Source: a candidate division TA06 bacterium
Lineage (GTDB): Bacteria; Hydrothermota; DG-26; E44-bin18
Length of the DNA stretch: 64,000 bases
Direction: 5' to 3'
Assembly (NCBI GenBank): GCA_004376575.1
Contig: SOJN01000046.1
Span: 48,709 to 112,708 of the forward strand
This document shows positions 32,503 through 53,520 of this stretch, piece after piece. Numbering within the stretch: the stretch's first letter is position 1; each line of letters begins with the position of its first letter. A program made the translations under genes and the position numbers. The notes beneath the pieces were generated by a model. The model did no database searches, had not been told where the DNA came from, and saw nothing but the letters and a program-made list of their open reading frames with translations.

Positions 32503-37632
<5,130 letters not shown>

Positions 37633-37717: not shown

Positions 37718-39094
37718 CTACGCGCTTGCATACTCCTTTGCGTTTATCCCGTACCTTTTTATCTTCTCGTGCAAATTCTGTCTTGCAATCTGAGCCATGC
37801 GCGCTGACTTGGCAACGTTCCCACCGTTCGCTTTGAGAATATCTACTATGTACTCTTTCTCAAAGGTTTCCTTAGCTTTTTTGAAGGGGAACTTGATGGC
37901 TGAGAGTCCTGCCTCAGGAGTCGGTGATGTGATGGATGTGGGGAGGTCGCCCACCTGTATGATGTCGTCAGAGCACAATGTCACCGCATGCTCGATGGCA
38001 TTTTCAAGCTCTCTTACATTTCCCGGCCAATCATGCCTCAAGAACCATTCGACTACTTCGGGAGTAAAACCTCTTACCGTCTTCTTCTGCTCTCTGCAGA
38101 ATTTCTGCAGGAAGTGATCCGCCAGGAGTGGTATGTCTTCTCTTCTCTCTCTCAGGGCAGGGAGAAAGATTCTTACCACATTAAGTCTGTAGAAGAGGTC
38201 CTTCCTGAAGGTTCCATTAGATAGCTCTTTGTTCAGATCAATGTTAGAGGATGCCATTATTCTGACATCAACTGTGATTTCCTTTATGCCACCAACAGGT
38301 ATGAAAGCACTTTCTTCAATGACGCGAAGAAGTTTTACCTGAGTGGAAAGGGGGGCTGTGTTTATTTCGTCCAGGAATATTGTTCCCCCCTCAGCTGCTT
38401 CGAAAAGGCCCTGCTTCGTTCTATCAGCACCCGTGAATGCACCCTTGGTATGCCCGAATAGTTCACTTTCCAGGAGAGTCTCCGGCACCCCACCACAGTT
38501 TATTGCAATGAATCTCTTATTCTTTCTCGGACTGGAGTAGTGTATCGTCTTCGCAACTACTTCCTTTCCTGTTCCACTTTCGCCTTGTATGAGAACTGTG
38601 GTCTTGGTTGGAGCAATCTTCCGTAAGAGTGCGTAAAGATCACGCATCTTCCTGCTTTTCCCAATGATGCGGCTGAAGGAGAACGTGTCCTCGAGCTGTT
38701 TGTGCAGATACCTGTTCTCATCCACCAGACTCTTTCTTTCAATTGCCCTCTCCACGACCAGCTTGACGCTTTCCATACCTATGGGCTTTCTGAGAAAGTC
38801 GTAGGCACCCAGTTTCATCGCCTCTACGGCAGTTTCGACAGTGGCATATCCTGTCAGCATTATGACCGAAGGATCAAACCTGTTTCTTCTTATTTCTTTT
38901 AGTACATCCAGTCCAGTGATGTAGGGCATTTTCAGGTCTAACAGAACAACATCATACTTAACGCGCTCGAGGGATTTGATGGCTGCTCTCCCATCTTCCG
39001 CCTTTGAAATGTGATATCTGTCTTTCAGAATGTCTTCCAGAGCATCTCTTATGCCCGGCTCATCGTCCACTATCAGAACGCTAGCCTTTTGCAT
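37718..39094 (-). CDS. NtrC-family sigma-54-dependent response regulator (REC-AAA+-HTH)
   Basis: [14 protein letters not shown] receiver, [21 protein letters not shown], and a Fis HTH. Start taken at [11 protein letters not shown] (ATG 39092-39094). The track start is 39178. Confidence 0.85.
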
Positions 39095-39177
39095 TACTAC
39101 CCCCCCGGGCCGCCTCAGAAGGTTAGGAACCAGACGCGGGGTTTTTCTGGGGAACCCTGCGAAACCCCTTGGCCGCA

Positions 39178-39378
39178 TCAGCTTGTGAGCGACGGGGCGT
39201 GCTCAACGAGCTTTGCGAAGAATGAAACAAGCCATGCGCAGTTCTTCCCCCCCCAATTGTCTTTTATGTAACTCTCGGTGTAGTCGAGATCCTTTGGGGA
39301 GGCCTGTGCAATTCTGGACACTACGTTGGCGATCTGCTCCAGCTCATACGTAGTGAGGACTGGATATTTCAGATTCAT
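39178..39378 (-). CDS. small protein, paralog A of a triplicated 59-66-aa family
   Basis: MNLKYPVLTTYELEQIANVVSRIAQ...WLVSFFAKLVEHA with a GGGAGGTGA RBS. About 60% identical to paralog B. Confidence 0.5.
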   Translation of the reverse strand: MNLKYPVLTTYELEQIANVVSRIAQASPKDLDYTESYIKDNWGGKNCAWLVSFFAKLVEHAPSLTS

Positions 39379-39459
39379 ACGTCACCTCCCTATGGTCTTT
39401 TAACACCAATTAGACAATCGCGGGATTTCTGGGGATTACCCCGCCAACCTTTGACTCTC

Positions 39460-39660
39460 CTAAGGATTGACCTTGGAGGCATGTTCCACGAGCCTGCCGA
39501 AGAAAGAAACCACCCAATCCGGGTTACTGCCAGGCCAACAATCTTTGAGATAGCTCTCCGTATCGGTGATTTCCTTATGGCTGGCTTTGGATAGCCTGTC
39601 GTAGATGTTGGCCATTTGTTCCAGCTCGTATGTGGTCAGGACCGGCCTCGGTCTCGTCAT
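39460..39660 (-). CDS. small protein, paralog B of the triplicated family
   Basis: MTRPRPVLTTYELEQMANIYDRLSKAS...WVVSFFGRLVEHA with AGGAGG 8 nt upstream of the ATG. Confidence 0.5.
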   Translation of the reverse strand: MTRPRPVLTTYELEQMANIYDRLSKASHKEITDTESYLKDCWPGSNPDWVVSFFGRLVEHASKVNP

Positions 39661-39717: not shown

Positions 39718-40167
39718 TCACTGAGCATCCCCCATTGACCATTCGTCGCTCAAGAGGACAAGGTCTTTGCGACCGTCCAGAACTAAGGCATAGGCACCCA
39801 TAACATCTCTGCCCAGAAGACTCGGTATTTGCTTCTTATACTTCTCCGGCAACTGATCATGCTTGTTGACCAGCACCTCATCAATATCCTGCTGGTGCTC
39901 ACCGCCCTCAGTTATGAAGGAGAAGGTCAGGTCGTTCAGTTTGTATATCTGTGTAAACCCGCCTATTCCCAACATATCCGCATTCATCTTCTCCATTTGG
40001 GCGAAGTCTATGCCCAGCTTGGCCACGTCTCGCTCACTGATGACCGTTCTTGGCGTTCCCGTATCTATCAAGAATGCAATTCTCCGGGGGTGTCCACCGT
40101 TTCTTCTGAGGACGATAATGTCTAGAAAAGGAGAACCGTCTGAGTTGAAGTAACCTATTATTTTCAA
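39718..40167 (-). CDS. retropepsin-like clan AA aspartic protease
   Basis: Catalytic D-T-G-T in FLIDTGTPRTVIS. About 150 aa. A second glycine-rich flap region is present. The ATGA start overlaps the upstream small gene. Confidence 0.7.
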   Translation of the reverse strand: MKIIGYFNSDGSPFLDIIVLRRNGGHPRRIAFLIDTGTPRTVISERDVAKLGIDFAQMEKMNADMLGIGGFTQIYKLNDLTFSFITEGGEHQQDIDEVLVNKHDQLPEKYKKQIPSLLGRDVMGAYALVLDGRKDLVLLSDEWSMGDAQ

Positions 40168-40436
40168 AGTATCACCGTTGCCTTCGTACTCGTCAAATAT
40201 TCTGTAGAGACAAGTTTAGAAACTCTTGGAAGCCTTCTGTCCACCAGTCTCATCAGCTCTGAAATATCCCGGTGTGAACCGACCACCTTCTTGTTGAATA
40301 CTGCAACAAACTGGTCGGGATAGCGTCGCGCAAGCGCAGAATAATTCTCAGCCAGCCACTTGGGATCGTCTGTGCTCGCTGCCGTCAGCTCATCCAGCAG
40401 AGCCCCGGGAATCTTGGTTGTAGTTGCTTTTGCCAT
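40164..40436 (-). CDS. small DUF5678-like protein translationally coupled to the retropepsin
   Basis: AGGAGG RBS 5 nt upstream. The motif ...YPDQFVAVFNKKVVGSHRDISELMRLV... resembles DUF5678 as recalled. Confidence 0.45.
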   Translation of the reverse strand: MAKATTTKIPGALLDELTAASTDDPKWLAENYSALARRYPDQFVAVFNKKVVGSHRDISELMRLVDRRLPRVSKLVSTEYLTSTKATVIL

Positions 40437-40470
40437 CTCAACCTCCTGCTTTGATTTCTTCCTTGACGCT

Positions 40471-40650
40471 CTAAAGATCTTCAAGCAGCCTGCAAAAGAA
40501 GGTGATGTACAGTTTTTGATTGGAAGCAGAACTTTTTTGTACGATGTAGCGGCGAGTAGATTCTATTTCATCGGGAGTTGCCTCTTTCAGTCGATCAAGG
40601 GTCCACTTAGTGGTTTCCAGTTCATGTATTGTAACCACCGGTTTGGACAT
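40471..40650 (-). CDS. small protein, divergent paralog C of the A/B family
   Basis: MSKPVVTIHELETTKWTLDRLKEATPDEIESTRRYIV...LYITFFCRLLEDL has the same pattern (V.T.HELE ... FF.RL.E) and a GGAGA RBS. Confidence 0.4.
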   Translation of the reverse strand: MSKPVVTIHELETTKWTLDRLKEATPDEIESTRRYIVQKSSASNQKLYITFFCRLLEDL

Positions 40651-40667: not shown

Positions 40668-42422
40668 CTAGATCTCTTGTTTGGACTCGTCCTGCATCGG
40701 GGGTAGCATGACCGTCACAGTTGTGCCTACTCCTGCCGCACTCTCTACCGAGATGCTTCCTCCGTGCTCGTCTACGATCCTTTTTGATATTGCCAGGCCC
40801 AGACCAGTTCCCGTTTCTTTGGTGGTGTAGAACGAGTCGAATATCTTGCCCAGCTCTTCCATCTTTATTCCGCACCCTGTGTCTTTGAAAGATACCAGAA
40901 CTCGTTCATCGCCCAACCTGTCCACACTCGATCCAGTGGAGACTGTCAGGGTTCCCCCCTCGCTCATGGCCTGTGCGGCGTTTGTTATCAGATTCAGAAA
41001 AACCTGCTGTAGTCTGTTTTTGTCTGCAAGTACACGCGGTAGATCGTTCTTCAGCGACCTTTCAAGTACTACGTTGTGGTTCTTGAGGTGGTTTTCTGTC
41101 AACAGGATGGACTCCCCTATAATTTGGGTTATGCTTTGAGGCTTGAACTCTGATCTGGACATGCGAGCAAACTCGAGTATCCCCTGTACTAGCTTTGATA
41201 TTCTTTCCACCTGTTTGTCAATAACATCGATGGAGTTGTATATCGGATCGCGGGGGTCTATCTTGCTCAATAGAATGTCTGTTCTGGCCATTATGGTCAT
41301 CAGGGGATTGTTTATTTCGTGTGCAATGGACCCAGCCAACTCGCCCACCGTGGCAAGCTTCTCAGACTGGAGCAACTGTGGGTAGGCCACAGCCATGGTC
41401 AGTGTGTTTTCCTCCAGCCTTGAGTACTTTTGTTTCAACATGTGATGGGACTGAGCCTTGGAAATAGCCAGTCCTACTCCGTCAGCGAAGGCCCTGAGTA
41501 GTGGCAAGTTATCCTCGCTGAAAGAATCCTCCTTCTTGTTGCTTTCTAGAAGTATGGCCCCAATTTTTCTGTTGTTCCTGCTGATTGGCACACATATGGC
41601 AGATTTGATTCCAGAATGGGAAACTGCGGATTCTGTCTCCTCGACACTGGGAGAGATCAAGAATGGCGATCCACATTCAATGACCCGTTCAGATATGTCA
41701 AAGTCTTTCGTTTGTTCCTCAATCAATTTCTTATAGTAACCATATCCCGCTCTAAGCGTGATGCTCTTGCCGGCTGCGTCAAAAGTCACGATTGCGGCTC
41801 CATCAACGTCTGGTATCAATTCGACCGCTTTCTTAATAACGAGCTCAAACATCTGCTGAGGATCCATGGTAGAGTTGATAGCGTTTGTTACGGATATGAG
41901 GCTTTCTGCCTCTTCGGACTTCTGCTGCATTCTATCGTAGTCGAGTTTTGCAATGAACGCTTCGCCAAACACTGAAATGAACTCCTGAAGCTTGGATCTT
42001 TCGTCGCTTCCGAGAAAGCCTTCCTTGATCCCGAGCACCATCCCTTTCTGCATGTTCGTTTTGCCAACTGGGAACAAGACTACATTGCAGGACTCTGGTA
42101 CCTTTGAACCCTTAGGAAGCAGGCAGTTCAGCTCACCTGCCGTCAGTGAAACGGCCTGGCTGGGTTCTGCAGAAAGCTTGAGAGTTGTCCTTATCCGACC
42201 TGGTTCCAACTTGGCAAGTTCCTTCTTGTGTTCCAGGAAGGGGGGACGGTAGGACTCTGCCATGAGACTGGGTACACCGAGGTTGTCCTTGTCAAAAAAG
42301 AGAAGGGCAGCATCCAGAGGAGGTACGCTACCACTGGTCAGATGTTCGACGATTACGTGAGGAATGCGAAATGTGGTCTTCAGATGTCCCGTCTTACTTT
42401 CTGATGCGGCCACGTGCCCCAC
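40668..42422 (-). CDS. soluble sensor histidine kinase (unknown N-domain - GAF - HisKA - HATPase_c)
   Basis: H-box HEINNPL, N-box NLITNAAQA, G1 box DTGCGI, G2 box GTGLGLAI. No TM segments. Confidence 0.85.
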   Translation of the reverse strand: MGHVAASESKTGHLKTTFRIPHVIVEHLTSGSVPPLDAALLFFDKDNLGVPSLMAESYRPPFLEHKKELAKLEPGRIRTTLKLSAEPSQAVSLTAGELNCLLPKGSKVPESCNVVLFPVGKTNMQKGMVLGIKEGFLGSDERSKLQEFISVFGEAFIAKLDYDRMQQKSEEAESLISVTNAINSTMDPQQMFELVIKKAVELIPDVDGAAIVTFDAAGKSITLRAGYGYYKKLIEEQTKDFDISERVIECGSPFLISPSVEETESAVSHSGIKSAICVPISRNNRKIGAILLESNKKEDSFSEDNLPLLRAFADGVGLAISKAQSHHMLKQKYSRLEENTLTMAVAYPQLLQSEKLATVGELAGSIAHEINNPLMTIMARTDILLSKIDPRDPIYNSIDVIDKQVERISKLVQGILEFARMSRSEFKPQSITQIIGESILLTENHLKNHNVVLERSLKNDLPRVLADKNRLQQVFLNLITNAAQAMSEGGTLTVSTGSSVDRLGDERVLVSFKDTGCGIKMEELGKIFDSFYTTKETGTGLGLAISKRIVDEHGGSISVESAAGVGTTVTVMLPPMQDESKQEI

Positions 42423-42425
42423 TCC

Positions 42426-42848
42426 CTAATTCCTCTCTGCGTTTCTTGCGGCCACTATTTCCCTCTTGGCTTGTGGCGAACACAGGTGTCTTGCAACTAT
42501 CCACCTGATGATTTCGAAGTTTAGCGGTTTTCGCGCATAGAAGACTATACCCAACTTTCTACATGCAATCTCCAGGTCATCTGAATAGTCCGAAGTTGTG
42601 ACAACGATGGGGAATGTAGAATCGAGTTCCCTTATCGTGGAGATAAGCTCTAACCCCCTCATGTCTTTCAGTTGCGTATCAGCAATAAGTATTGACAGAG
42701 CGCTGTTTCTGAATGCGACGAGAAGGTCTGAACCATTCTCAGCAGTAATGACTGAGAACCCCAGTCTTTCAAATGCCCTTCTCAATTTGGTGAGCCACTT
42801 TGAGTCGGCATCTGTGATTCCTATAGTCTTATCCATCGCGTCAACCAT
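42426..42848 (-). CDS. single-domain response regulator receiver (CheY-like)
   Basis: IGITDAD, phospho-acceptor Asp in ILIADTQL, and the conserved T (VVTTS) and K (YARKP). Confidence 0.65.
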   Translation of the reverse strand: MVDAMDKTIGITDADSKWLTKLRRAFERLGFSVITAENGSDLLVAFRNSALSILIADTQLKDMRGLELISTIRELDSTFPIVVTTSDYSDDLEIACRKLGIVFYARKPLNFEIIRWIVARHLCSPQAKREIVAARNAERN

Positions 42849-42883: not shown

Positions 42884-42899
42884 TGCAACAATTGTGCCA
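42884..42899 (-). promoter_or_regulatory. sigma-54 (RpoN) promoter, TGGCAC-N5-TTGCA
   Basis: The reverse complement reads ctcTGGCACaattgTTGCAtg, a perfect -24/-12 consensus with correct spacing, about 36 nt upstream of the receiver gene. Confidence 0.55.
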
Positions 42900-45902: not shown

Positions 45903-45918
45903 TGGCATGTTTTTTGCT
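45903..45918 (+). promoter_or_regulatory. sigma-54 promoter TGGCAT-N5-TTGCT
   Basis: ttGGcatgttttttGCt has correct GG-N10-GC spacing, about 135 nt upstream of receiver paralog 1. Confidence 0.45.
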
Positions 45919-50598: not shown

Positions 50599-53520
50599 AT
50601 GAATAAAAGTACAATAGTATTCAGCAACTGGAAATGTAGGAGATTGAAATTCCTGGCCAGCCTGGCTGCAGCAGGTTGCGTCTTGCTTTTCGCAAACCGG
50701 TGTGCAGGCGAGGTTGCCTGGTGGGACACAGACCATGACGAGAGAGCTCAGCTTATTGTTCAAAATCAATCCAGCAATACGCTTTACGCAGGGTATCCTG
50801 TGGCTGAGAGTCTGGACACCGGAACTCTCGTTTCTGCTGGCGACATGCTTGCCTCTGGAAACGATCTGAGGATTATTTACTACAATGGCGCGTCCAACGT
50901 GGAATTGGACAGGCGAATCATTTACATGAATTCCGACACCACGTTGGTCTGGTTCGCTGTTCAGCAGGATATAGCGCCTTCAGCAGCTGACAGCAACTAC
51001 TGGATGTACTACAACCACCCTTCAGCTTCAGCACCAAATGTTGACATTGACAGCATATTCGTGCCACCAAAAGATGGTTACAGTGCTGCACTCTACTTTT
51101 TCGAATCAGGCTCCGGTACGACCCTTGAAGACACTTCCGGGAATGACAATGATGGGACTGTTAATAACATGGACAACACCAACTGGGTCGAGGGAAAGCA
51201 CTCTCTTGGCCTTCACTTTGACGGGTCTAGTGAATATATCTCCGTTCCTGACGACGCCATCCTTGACATAGAAGACGAGATAACCTTGGAGACCTGGTTC
51301 AAACTCGATAATGCCTTCGGCCCCGATTCTGAAAACTATGACATGTCGCTCCTAGAAAAAGGGCCTTACGGCCTTAGGCTCGACCACGTTACAGGAGAAC
51401 TTGTATTCAGTCTTTCCGGTTGGACTGTGGAGTACGACTCTCCTCAGAGTGAGATCTATTCCTTGGCCCTCTACAACGGGAAGCTTTTCGCTGGTACTGG
51501 AGAGAGTGGCATAGTCCATACCTTTGACGGAGCCACGTGGTCTAGCGAGGACATCACTGATGAAAAGGATGTGATGTGCCTTTGCGTTTACGGAGGCAAG
51601 CTTTATGCTGGCACAGGTGAAGCGCAGGGTATTGGAGGCGGGAAGATTTATGTCTACGATGGCATAAGCTGGGTCCTGGAGTATGATACGCCAAGCAAAA
51701 ATATCCGCTCGATGGCCGTATACAGAGATACCCTTTTCGCAGGGAGCGGGAATTCGGGGTTGGTCTATAAGTTTGACGGGACTTCCTGGTCAAGTCAGGA
51801 TATTACAAACGATTGGGACATTTTCTCTCTACGAGTATACAACAACAAACTGTATGCTGGTACGGGGAACCCTTCGGCACAAGGCAAGGGATATTTCTAC
51901 TCGTACGATGGAACTTGGTCTCTTGAGTACGACAGCCCGTCAAAGAACATTTATTCGATGGCCGTATACACAGATACCCTTTTCGCGACGAGCGGGGATG
52001 AGGGGTTGGTGTATAAGTTTGACGGGACTTCCTGGTCGAGTGAAGATATTACATCACAAAAGGATGTGCTCTCCATATTTGTATATTCAGGCAAGCTCTA
52101 TGCAGGTACCGGGACCTTTGGATCTCCTATAGGGGCCGGGCTAATATACGAGTATGACGGCTCCTCATGGTCTCTTTCCTATAACACCCCTCAAAAAGAT
52201 GTATTCAGTCTTGGCGATTACAATGGCCTTCTCTATCTAGGCACTGGCAATTCTGGAATAATCTACACCTACCCTGATGAGGCGGTCTTGGCGTCTGCGC
52301 AGGGTTTATGGAACGCCGCCCAGTTCTACCACGTTGCAGGAACCTTTGATGGTTCTGACATGAAGATTTTTGTGGATGGGATTTTGGATACATCAAACTC
52401 GGTAAGTGTGATCATAGACAAGGACACTTCAGCACTGATGATTGGCGGAGGAATCGACACCACCTTTTTCAGAGGTTCTCTAGATGGTATGGGAGTTTCA
52501 GGTGTGGCGAGGACCGATTTCTGGTACGCCAAAATATCGCCAGAACCCACTGTGGCACTGGCTGGCACGGGGACATATACCTCCATGGGAGATATCAACA
52601 GGAGTACTTCGGACGGAAACATCGCCATCTATTGGCGGAGTGTCAGCGGAAGGACCTATGACGTTTTTTACTGCGATACTCTCCAGGGAACCTACACGGA
52701 TGTAGCAGATGTGGTTGCCAGTGGTGACACCACGAGCTGGACAGATGATGGTTCTGCTACGGGTACGCATCCTGATTCTGTTGTGGCCAGGTTCTACAGG
52801 GTTGAGTGCCAGACAGGAGCACTGAGCAGAAATACCACGGGCAAGATGAAGAGATCGATTGTCTCCGGGATGCAGCTCGTCAGCAACCCATTTATTCCAT
52901 ACAACTCATCGATTCAGAGTGTGCTTGGCGGACAGTTGACAGGAGCTGCGGATGAAGGGTATGCAGACAGGGTCTGGAAGTACGATACTGACATAGACGA
53001 CTACGTCTTTGCATGGCTGGTTGCTGGAGTTGGCGCGCCTTACGATGGAAAGTGGTGGAGTTCTCAGGACTTTGAGGAATCAACAATGGATCTGGGTCCT
53101 GACTGCGGTTTCTGGATACAATCGAGAAATGCAGCCCAGGAGATGACTTTTGTTGGTGAGGTCTCGGATACTTCTGACAGGGTGATATCGATTGTCTCAG
53201 GGATGCAGTTGTTTGGGAGCCCCTATCCGGATACAGTTCTCCTGAAGAACTCAGACCTGATTGAAGATGGTGCGACAGGTGCTACGACTGAACTGAATGC
53301 CGATAGGATTTGGTGGTGGGATCCTGATTCAACTAAGTACGACTATGCGTGGTTGGTGGACGATACGGGAGGCCCGAACGATAGTCTATGGTGGGATTCA
53401 GACCCCTGGGGTGAGACTTCAATCACTCTGAGGCCCGGCGAGGGTTACTGGTATCAGACAAGAGGTAACCCATTTACCTGGAGTTATTCGAAGCCCTATG
53501 ATGCGCCACCAAATCCGTAA
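50599..53520 (+). CDS. large secreted repeat protein (about 45-aa YAGTG/beta-propeller-like repeats, a LamG-like region, and a C-terminal tandem about-120-aa domain) with no T9SS CTD
   Basis: ATG 50599 has a GAGGAG RBS and a signal peptide. Repeats of the form LYAGTG...G.VY.FDG.SWS...DIT. The C-terminal 250 aa (VARFYRVE...GKWWSSQDF...WWDSDPWG...YWYQTRG) is shared with 55168..57201. Confidence 0.75.
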   Translation: MNKSTIVFSNWKCRRLKFLASLAAAGCVLLFANRCAGEVAWWDTDHDERAQLIVQNQSSNTLYAGYPVAESLDTGTLVSAGDMLASGNDLRIIYYNGASNVELDRRIIYMNSDTTLVWFAVQQDIAPSAADSNYWMYYNHPSASAPNVDIDSIFVPPKDGYSAALYFFESGSGTTLEDTSGNDNDGTVNNMDNTNWVEGKHSLGLHFDGSSEYISVPDDAILDIEDEITLETWFKLDNAFGPDSENYDMSLLEKGPYGLRLDHVTGELVFSLSGWTVEYDSPQSEIYSLALYNGKLFAGTGESGIVHTFDGATWSSEDITDEKDVMCLCVYGGKLYAGTGEAQGIGGGKIYVYDGISWVLEYDTPSKNIRSMAVYRDTLFAGSGNSGLVYKFDGTSWSSQDITNDWDIFSLRVYNNKLYAGTGNPSAQGKGYFYSYDGTWSLEYDSPSKNIYSMAVYTDTLFATSGDEGLVYKFDGTSWSSEDITSQKDVLSIFVYSGKLYAGTGTFGSPIGAGLIYEYDGSSWSLSYNTPQKDVFSLGDYNGLLYLGTGNSGIIYTYPDEAVLASAQGLWNAAQFYHVAGTFDGSDMKIFVDGILDTSNSVSVIIDKDTSALMIGGGIDTTFFRGSLDGMGVSGVARTDFWYAKISPEPTVALAGTGTYTSMGDINRSTSDGNIAIYWRSVSGRTYDVFYCDTLQGTYTDVADVVASGDTTSWTDDGSATGTHPDSVVARFYRVECQTGALSRNTTGKMKRSIVSGMQLVSNPFIPYNSSIQSVLGGQLTGAADEGYADRVWKYDTDIDDYVFAWLVAGVGAPYDGKWWSSQDFEESTMDLGPDCGFWIQSRNAAQEMTFVGEVSDTSDRVISIVSGMQLFGSPYPDTVLLKNSDLIEDGATGATTELNADRIWWWDPDSTKYDYAWLVDDTGGPNDSLWWDSDPWGETSITLRPGEGYWYQTRGNPFTWSYSKPYDAPPNP

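Follow-up and report, generated by a model that had tools for sequence, protein, structure and literature searches.

Only a few retropepsin-like aspartic proteases of prokaryotes have been studied. Those found in the literature are APRc, RimB and RloA, and a partner of the kind described here is lacking in all three. The two genes in question lie in a 64,000-nucleotide stretch of DNA (the window) from a candidate division TA06 bacterium (GenBank contig SOJN01000046.1, positions 48,709 to 112,708), with a gene for a small protein assigned to the Pfam family DUF5678 followed immediately by a gene for a predicted soluble retropepsin-like protease. The bacterial protease APRc is membrane-embedded and self-processing, and to our knowledge it has no DUF5678 partner. 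Also known as ApRick (RC1339), it is the characterised retropepsin-like protease of Rickettsia conorii (PDB 5c9b/5c9d/5c9f; PMC4140852). APRc is the best structural match to the modelled window protease (Foldseek E 6e-7, template modelling (TM) score 0.63-0.70) and the two have in common the single-lobe clan AA fold with one DTG per chain, although the window protease is without a hydrophobic N-terminal extension and the similarity of the two sequences is marginal (E 0.4).

The proteases of retroviruses (MEROPS A2), such as those of Rous sarcoma virus (RSV)/avian myeloblastosis virus (AMV), feline immunodeficiency virus (FIV) and human immunodeficiency virus type 1 (HIV-1), have the DTG, the G-I-G-G flap, the G-R-D/N motif and the fold in common with the window protease, and they too have a protein with a hydrophobic C-terminus encoded directly upstream in another reading frame. 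The differences are that the window pair comes without Gag, reverse transcriptase, integrase or a polyprotein and gives two separate proteins, that it would rely on termination-reinitiation where the virus relies on frameshifting, and that its protease has 149 amino acids (aa) compared with 99-125 aa in the viral enzymes. HIV-1 protease is reported to be inhibited by the C-terminus of the upstream transframe peptide p6*, and this inhibition provides a lead, in that it may be the closest mechanistic analogy for the tail of the DUF5678 partner.

In Pseudomonas the retropepsin-like proteases RimB (PMC11957791) and RloA (PMC12239564) are found in small operons together with partner proteins, but these partners are RimA/RimK or RloB/RloC (ATP-grasp, transglutaminase-like) and not DUF5678. 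RloA is secreted, both RimB and RloA act on glutamate-rich sequences, and their relation to the window protease is that of a common Pfam clan. Small proteins with a retropepsin domain are also known from the vicinity of type III CRISPR (clustered regularly interspaced short palindromic repeats) loci in Sulfolobales (PMC3973734).

A different likeness is that to type II toxin-antitoxin (TA) modules, which the pair resembles in layout: both genes are small and point the same way, the stop codon of the first, smaller one overlaps the start codon of the second, and the two are adjacent, tightly coupled and recur as a unit in varied contexts. The patchy distribution across phyla, the tandem copies, the orphan first genes and the decaying second genes add to the resemblance. 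Unlike such modules, the pair was not seen on plasmids or phages and is stably syntenic in TA06; no DNA-binding or antitoxin fold was recognised in the DUF5678 protein, and the literature searched contained neither a retropepsin toxin nor a link between a retropepsin and an antitoxin. The protease and its relatives also match the PDC-M08B models of PADLOC at E 1e-6 to 4e-4 and 15-26 bits (E 1e-6 for the window protease), scores no better than those of the generic Pfam retropepsin models. PDC-M08A is not matched by the window partner and is matched by one of 26 relatives at E 0.013. With the weak match to component B alone and component A unmatched, membership of PADLOC PDC-M08 was ruled out, and no literature on PDC-M08 was found.

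The gene pair and its products

Both open reading frames (ORFs) are on the minus strand, with the DUF5678 gene first and the protease gene second (Table 1). The initial annotation, made from the sequence without database searches, described a DUF5678-like protein of 91 aa that overlaps by ATGA a 149-aa retropepsin-like protease with a catalytic DTGT, and much of this stands. The small protein scores 30.0 bits against DUF5678 (PF18929; gathering score 23.2, E 4.6e-7, residues 35-70) and contains YPDQFVAVFNKKVVGSHRDISELMRLV, but it has 90 aa, with 91 being the number of codons if the stop is counted. The genes do overlap by 4 nucleotides (nt), although the letters are TTGA and the start codon of the protease is TTG. 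An alternative start of the DUF5678 ORF is a TTG at 40484, and the sequence favours the ATG at 40436 because the Shine-Dalgarno motif AGGAGG precedes it.

The 149-aa protein contains FLIDTGT and lies above the gathering scores of both Asp_protease_2 (PF13650; 26.7 bits, gathering score 24.3) and RVP (PF00077; 25.1 bits, gathering score 20.7). A search with TIGR03698 had also been suggested; TIGR03698 (clan_AA_DTGF) gives 14.2 bits and TIGR02281 (clan_AA_DTGA) 20.8 bits, both far below the NCBIfam cut-offs of about 57 bits. Judged by its sequence the protein is a retropepsin-like protease of clan AA and not a member of TIGR03698 or TIGR02281. The flap elements, for which the annotation had asked, are present as GIGG at residues 67-70 and LLGRD at 117-121, and the catalytic motif F-L-I-D35-T-G-T fits the pattern hydrophobic-hydrophobic-D-T/S-G-A/T. 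Across 13 protease homologues, the most distant of which is about 29% identical, D35 and G37 never change and T36 is nearly invariant, the flap residues G67, G69 and G70 are invariant, and so are P115 to R120 of the motif PSLLGRD, with D121 nearly invariant; the DTG is found in all related loci.

The AlphaFold2 (AF2) model of the protease monomer has a mean predicted local distance difference test score (pLDDT) of 86.7, which dips solely at the flap and the last residues. Within the model the flap sits in a beta-hairpin (residues 59-86) that aligns with the flap of RSV protease, and residues 120-123 form a helix. The top Foldseek match in the PDB is the APRc structure 5c9f, followed by the proteases of RSV, FIV, equine infectious anaemia virus (EIAV), human T-lymphotropic virus (HTLV) and HIV, whilst by sequence the closest solved relative is RSV protease (E 7e-4). 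The protease looks catalytically intact and is presumably a homodimer with one Asp per chain, as in all retropepsins. Both the protease and the DUF5678 protein are probably cytoplasmic, because neither has a hydrophobic N-terminus when their sequences are read.

The AF2 model of the partner (pLDDT 75.8) consists of helices at 11-38, a beta-hairpin at 42-55 that bears the signature YPDQFVAV..KKVVG, a helix at 58-68, a strand at 77-81 and an unstructured tail, of which residues 87-90 have a pLDDT below 50 when the protein is modelled alone. Identity among the DUF5678 orthologues is 61-99%, and in 14 of them the tail residues K85, A86, V88, I89 and L90 are invariant and the N-terminus is variable. 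The codons of the tail vary between lineages, therefore the constraint on the tail acts at the level of the protein. An invariant tail that is predicted to be disordered when alone is as expected for a short binding motif, and it is proposed that KATVIL is a motif for binding the protease or a degron.

The wider family gives a similar picture of the C-terminus. At E <=1e-3 a profile of the partner family matched 2,579 representatives (50% identity level), and the best 150 of these were examined. The 145 new ones among them comprise 127 short proteins of 72-135 aa and 18 of more than 135 aa. Of the short representatives 67 have L as the final residue, 70 have I or V at position -2 and 85 have L, M, F or W at position -3, with 45 of the 127 ending in LIL, MIL or LVL. 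Other subclades have conserved partner tails of their own (..TPFSAS, ..WWIRYGAE), which are matched with protease subtypes of their own. Most of the long proteins hold two or three DUF5678 domains (e.g. P0118, P0075, P0076), and in P0118 two such domains are accompanied by an N-terminal segment resembling the Phd/YefM antitoxins (24.2 bits, below the Pfam cut-off). No published function of DUF5678 was found in the literature searched.

Recurrence of the pair

When one genome of each GTDB species was scanned for the pattern, 31 loci were obtained. In seven of these the protein is a longer, membrane-anchored, TIGR02281-like one without a DUF5678 partner, and in the other 24 it is a soluble protease of about 145 aa, its gene being directly preceded in every case (24/24) by a DUF5678-like ORF of the same strand. 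The 24 loci come from TA06, Dehalococcoidia and other Chloroflexota, the Alphaproteobacteria Xanthobacteraceae, Propylenella and Rhizobium, Pseudomonadales and other Gammaproteobacteria, Chthonomonadia, and a single archaeon of the Methanomassiliicoccales. Two extra homologues from metagenomes, which were picked via the protease alone, have the same arrangement. PF18929 independently recognises 20 of 26 upstream ORFs from related loci, and four loci that were left out when the hidden Markov model (HMM) of the partner was built still match it at E 3e-13 to 4e-30. Thus the pair, for which the initial annotation had proposed a survey of adjacency, recurs across phyla, being present in at least six bacterial lineages and one archaeon.

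Of 30 related loci, 29 have a distance from stop to start of between -4 and +6 nt; in 13 the distance is -4 nt, which is an NTGA overlap. Translational coupling of DUF5678 and protease, which had been read from the overlap in the window, is therefore supported by the overlap or close spacing of the codons throughout the related loci. The two proteins have also diverged together, with the pairwise identities of partner and protease giving a Mantel r of 0.82 that was reached in none of 2000 permutations.

The surroundings of the pair do not recur in this manner. An all-against-all comparison of flanking ORFs found no third gene common to more than three loci, and those were mutually related. The nearest relatives outside the clade of the window are 48-49% identical, at least one of them (L009) coming from a metagenome-assembled genome (MAG) of TA06, and have PAP2, polyprenyl synthase, ApbE and MoxR genes as neighbours, whilst more distant pairs sit by CofC, ClpB and acetyltransferase genes. 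Outside the TA06 clade neither a sigma-54 regulator nor a gene like those for the small proteins A, B and C of the host operon (see below) recurs beside the pair. DUF5678 and the protease form a self-contained, widespread two-gene module that is independent of genomic context, because pairing is obligate, the genes are coupled, the proteins co-diverge, the contexts are unrelated and there is no recurrent neighbour. Two families, DUF5678 and the soluble retropepsin-like proteases, are in this way shown to belong to one obligate, tightly coupled module.

The module of the window is present once, with an HMM search of all window ORFs finding no further copies in the 64 kilobases (kb). Two other window ORFs of 149 aa (1659-2108 and 51683-52132) were considered as copies of the protease and are unrelated, and there were no PHROG matches. 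The guanine-plus-cytosine (GC) content of the pair is 0.48-0.50 compared with 0.50 for the window, and a recent transfer recognisable by compositional anomaly was ruled out since the GC equals that of the host.

Arrays, orphans and decay

The number of pairs at a locus is not fixed. On two long-read metagenome contigs of Dehalococcoidia type there are 4-6 DUF5678 and protease pairs in tandem together with extra small genes (L046, 1280-5783; L047, 361-5783), and a third array has three pairs (L037, 3638-6141). The array site is between CofD/CofC and acyl-CoA dehydrogenase, and in a syntenic contig (L048, 5001-5606) there is one small gene and a 57-aa remnant, so that the copy number is polymorphic. 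Such variation in the copy number of arrays is accessory behaviour.

Loss appears to affect the two genes unequally. L046 has seven small genes to four proteases, and a truncated or frameshifted protease accompanies an intact small gene in 5 of the 24 genome loci (L013, L015, L028, the first copy in L037, and L039). In the loci examined no intact soluble protease was seen without its partner. This asymmetry of decay, with surplus and orphan partners and no orphan protease, is more in keeping with an inhibitor or antidote than with a mere subunit, and would be typical of antitoxin or immunity genes. The comparison with toxin-antitoxin-like or protease-inhibitor pairs, which the initial annotation had drawn from the window alone, is thus strengthened by obligate adjacency, co-divergence, tandem arrays, orphan small genes and the lack of orphan proteases. 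On one further contig (L049, 1332-2011) a PIN / PSK_trans_fac pair, which is VapBC-like, lies about 3 kb from the DUF5678-protease pair.

How the partner may act on the protease

It is possible, and is the reading that we tentatively prefer, that the partner binds the protease and, by means of its C-terminal tail, restrains or gates it much as an antitoxin, an immunity protein or a trans-acting pro-peptide would. Because the stop and start codons overlap or abut, ribosomes would re-initiate on the protease once the partner is completed, and the partner would thus be present whenever the protease is made. The partner would then bind the protease and hold it in check or gate it, with the contact being made by the hydrophobic tail ..K-A-T-V-I-L-COOH, which may either lie in the substrate cleft, as a cleavage product does, or become part of the dimer's terminal beta-sheet. 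Loss or titration of the partner would set the protease free. C-terminal degrons for AAA+ proteases are known, and the hydrophobic tail may also, or instead, act as one of these, which would make the partner labile. In TA06 the expression of the pair would follow the sigma-54 signalling pathway, via the promoter at 42884-42899. If a tail-mediated inhibitor is indeed what the partner is, it would be a natural protein inhibitor of a retropepsin and a new type of effector for toxin-antitoxin and defence biology, and would provide a function for a Pfam family of unknown function.

A number of points weigh against such a restraining partner. The pair was not found by tblastn in 72,556 plasmids (PLSDB) or 50,697 GenBank phage records, nor was it found in IMG/VR, which sets it apart from classical addiction modules, although the lineages involved have few genomes in these collections. 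The fixed chromosomal position in TA06 at saturated synonymous divergence (dS), with the protease more constrained than the neighbouring kinase, looks like that of a useful host gene rather than a selfish cassette. Some of the broken proteases could be MAG assembly errors. Furthermore, an obligate activator, chaperone or adaptor would be just as compatible with the gene order and the coupling.

The last of these points leads to the view that DUF5678 is an obligate positive partner, either a chaperone for folding or dimerisation or an adaptor for substrates, in a two-subunit protease of housekeeping type. Strict co-occurrence, coupling and co-divergence would all be accounted for, as would the long retention under purifying selection and the absence from plasmids, phages and viral contigs, and according to one paper the few characterised bacterial A2 peptidases also involve other protein factors, which either activate the protease or belong to a catabolic cascade (PMC11957791). 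Yet surplus and orphan small genes, and intact ones beside decayed proteases, would be surprising if the small protein were a subunit with no use by itself, and tandem amplification with copy-number polymorphism would be unusual for a housekeeping enzyme, so that a positive partner seems rather unlikely, if worth serious consideration.

The restraining partner can also be placed in a broader setting, about which we are just as doubtful. DUF5678-retropepsin pairs might be unrecognised, widespread protease-based modules of TA-like or defence type in bacteria and archaea, in which a cytoplasmic enzyme like HIV protease, kept inactive by the tail of its partner, is freed by stress or infection, and which in one TA06 lineage were domesticated as the proteolytic output of a sigma-54 operon. 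Weak hints in favour of the restraining partner itself are the similarity to PDC-M08B and the Phd/YefM-like fusion in P0118.

The sigma-54 operon of TA06

The pair of the window is part of a co-directional row of genes in the order receiver, GAF histidine kinase, C, DUF5678, protease, B, A and NtrC-type activator (Table 1), and the closest named database protein, 96% identical, belongs to a bacterium of candidate division TA06. Metagenomic or MAG contigs provided orthologous operons (L001, L003, L040, L041/L042 and L043), and in every one of them the pair occupies the identical slot, with the C-type small paralogue on one side and the B/A-type ones on the other. The kinase, small C, DUF5678 and protease genes of L041/L042 are chained by overlaps of 1-4 nt. 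Identity across the orthologous operons is 75-87% for the protease, 61-76% for DUF5678 and 62-87% for the kinase. The ratio of nonsynonymous to synonymous substitution (dN/dS) is about 0.08 (0.075) for the protease, 0.12-0.17 for DUF5678 and 0.12 for the kinase, with synonymous sites at or near saturation, and the values for the pair are comparable to or below those of the neighbours. Both genes are judged from these comparisons to be real, functional and old residents of the TA06 operon, because they have a fixed slot, purifying selection, saturated dS and a GC content like that of the host. The large fusion protein of 1709 aa encoded beyond the activator is conserved in L043 at 67% identity.

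Table 1. Features of the gene pair and its surroundings in the window.
Feature	Position	Strand	Basis or remark
Sigma-54 -24/-12 element TGGCACAATTGTTGCA	42884..42899	-	upstream of receiver gene; one mismatch to consensus
Receiver gene	42426-42848	-	co-directional row with pair
GAF histidine kinase gene	40668-42422	-	co-directional row
Small protein C	40471..40650	-	directly upstream of pair; lineage-specific paralogue, alignment
Shine-Dalgarno AGGAGG	40442..40447	-	5 nt upstream of DUF5678 ATG; read from sequence
DUF5678 partner gene	40164..40436	-	90 aa (91 codons with stop); PF18929 match, orthologues, dN/dS
Codons for partner C-terminal tail K-A-T-V-I-L, residues 85-90	40167..40184	-	invariance in orthologues; low pLDDT
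TTGA overlap, partner stop TGA / protease start TTG	40164..40167	-	sequence
Retropepsin-like (clan AA) aspartic protease gene (predicted), soluble, 149 aa	39718..40167	-	PF13650 and PF00077 above cut-off; AF2 model; Foldseek; dN/dS
Codons for catalytic Asp35-Thr36-Gly37	40057..40065	-	invariance in homologues; present in all related loci
Codons for flap tip G67-I-G-G70	39958..39969	-	invariance; beta-hairpin 59-86; alignment with RSV protease flap
Codons for L117-L-G-R-D121 (retropepsin G-R-D/N motif)	39805..39819	-	invariance; helix 120-123 in model
Small protein B	39460-39660	-	directly downstream of pair; paralogue of A and C
Small protein A	39178-39378	-	downstream of B; paralogue of B and C
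NtrC-type sigma-54 activator gene	37718-39178	-	co-directional row
1709-aa Ser/Thr kinase + AAA_16 + TPR + GAF + sigma-54 activator/HTH_8 fusion	32503-37632	-	

The sigma-54 element upstream of the receiver gene is kept at the same place in three orthologous contigs (L001, L003 and L043), and is the likely promoter of the whole operon including the pair. No comparable site was found on the minus strand between 39000 and 40700. The pair is probably transcribed within the operon, because there is this conserved sigma-54 promoter upstream and none inside the stretch of small genes.

The proteins A, B and C are three paralogues of 59-66 aa with the consensus ..PVLTTYELEQ..DRL..AS.KEI..TE.YIKD.W.GS...W.VSFFAKLVEHAP, and have no matches in Pfam, NCBIfam, PADLOC or PHROGs. 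They are confined to the orthologous TA06 operons, with 3-4 copies in each, and are absent from all other pair loci. A metagenome scan for them gave three loci, close relatives that all have the pair, and thus neither arrays of A/B/C nor operons without the pair were seen. That they might be divergent paralogues of DUF5678 was ruled out by an hhalign probability of 0.9%.

The initial annotation took the position of the pair between sensor and activator genes as a pointer to what the protease cleaves. Taken in full, this would make the pair a working part of the sigma-54 operon of TA06, with the protease cleaving A/B/C or the enhancer-binding activator and DUF5678 setting the timing, which if true would show regulated aspartic proteolysis at work in bacterial signalling. 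Much in the operon agrees with such a role: the slot is identical in all orthologous operons, the pair and the kinase have diverged in step, there is strong purifying selection despite saturated synonymous sites, kinase, C, DUF5678 and protease form the overlap chain of L041/L042, the pair lacks a separate promoter-like site and has the conserved sigma-54 promoter upstream of it, and its GC is that of the host. However, the 49% identical TA06 relatives and all the more distant pairs are in unrelated contexts, no sigma-54 gene and no A/B/C-like gene recurs by the pair elsewhere, and a fixed position within one clade can be explained by simple vertical inheritance. As the function of the pair, a part in the operon is therefore unlikely, and its position does not serve as a general pointer to the cleavage target, given the unrelated contexts outside one TA06 clade and the lack of a recurrent neighbour. 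Within that clade an operon-specific, co-opted role is possible, because the same position has been kept at saturated synonymous sites and under strong constraint.

It is very improbable that the small protein is a dedicated substrate or precursor that gives a peptide, or the split relic of a Gag-Pro-like self-cleaving fusion, for although its hydrophobic ..LIL C-terminus resembles the P-side of a retropepsin cleavage site and the gene junction recalls the gag-pro layout, none of the 18 long DUF5678-like proteins has a DTG or LLGRD, these being mostly repeated DUF5678 domains, the junction varies in frame and in spacing (-4 to +6 nt) and hence has no conserved programmed frameshift, and no reverse transcriptase, integrase or gag-like gene is nearby. 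A fusion of partner and protease, or a conserved frameshift between them, was accordingly ruled out, with no fusion among the long proteins of the best 150 and with variable junction frames. A protease encoded by a retroelement was likewise ruled out, the neighbours being signalling or metabolic genes with no linked gag, reverse transcriptase or integrase.

The stretch around the operon holds further signs of sigma-54 regulation. Four sigma-54 enhancer-binding proteins are encoded within 32.5-45.8 kb of the window, and on the plus strand near-consensus sigma-54 elements occur at 45903, 49433, 49980, 50256, 50513 and 54943, where they precede receiver genes and genes for large FlgD_ig, Laminin_G_3 and FG-GAP proteins. 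Between the small genes of the operon itself, a GC-rich motif GGGG(T/-)..CCCCAGAAA(T/A)(A)CCCGCG is repeated in the minus-strand spacers at 39095-39180 (from A to the activator) and 39379-39462 (from B to A), and may be an RNA stem-loop or an element for processing or attenuation.

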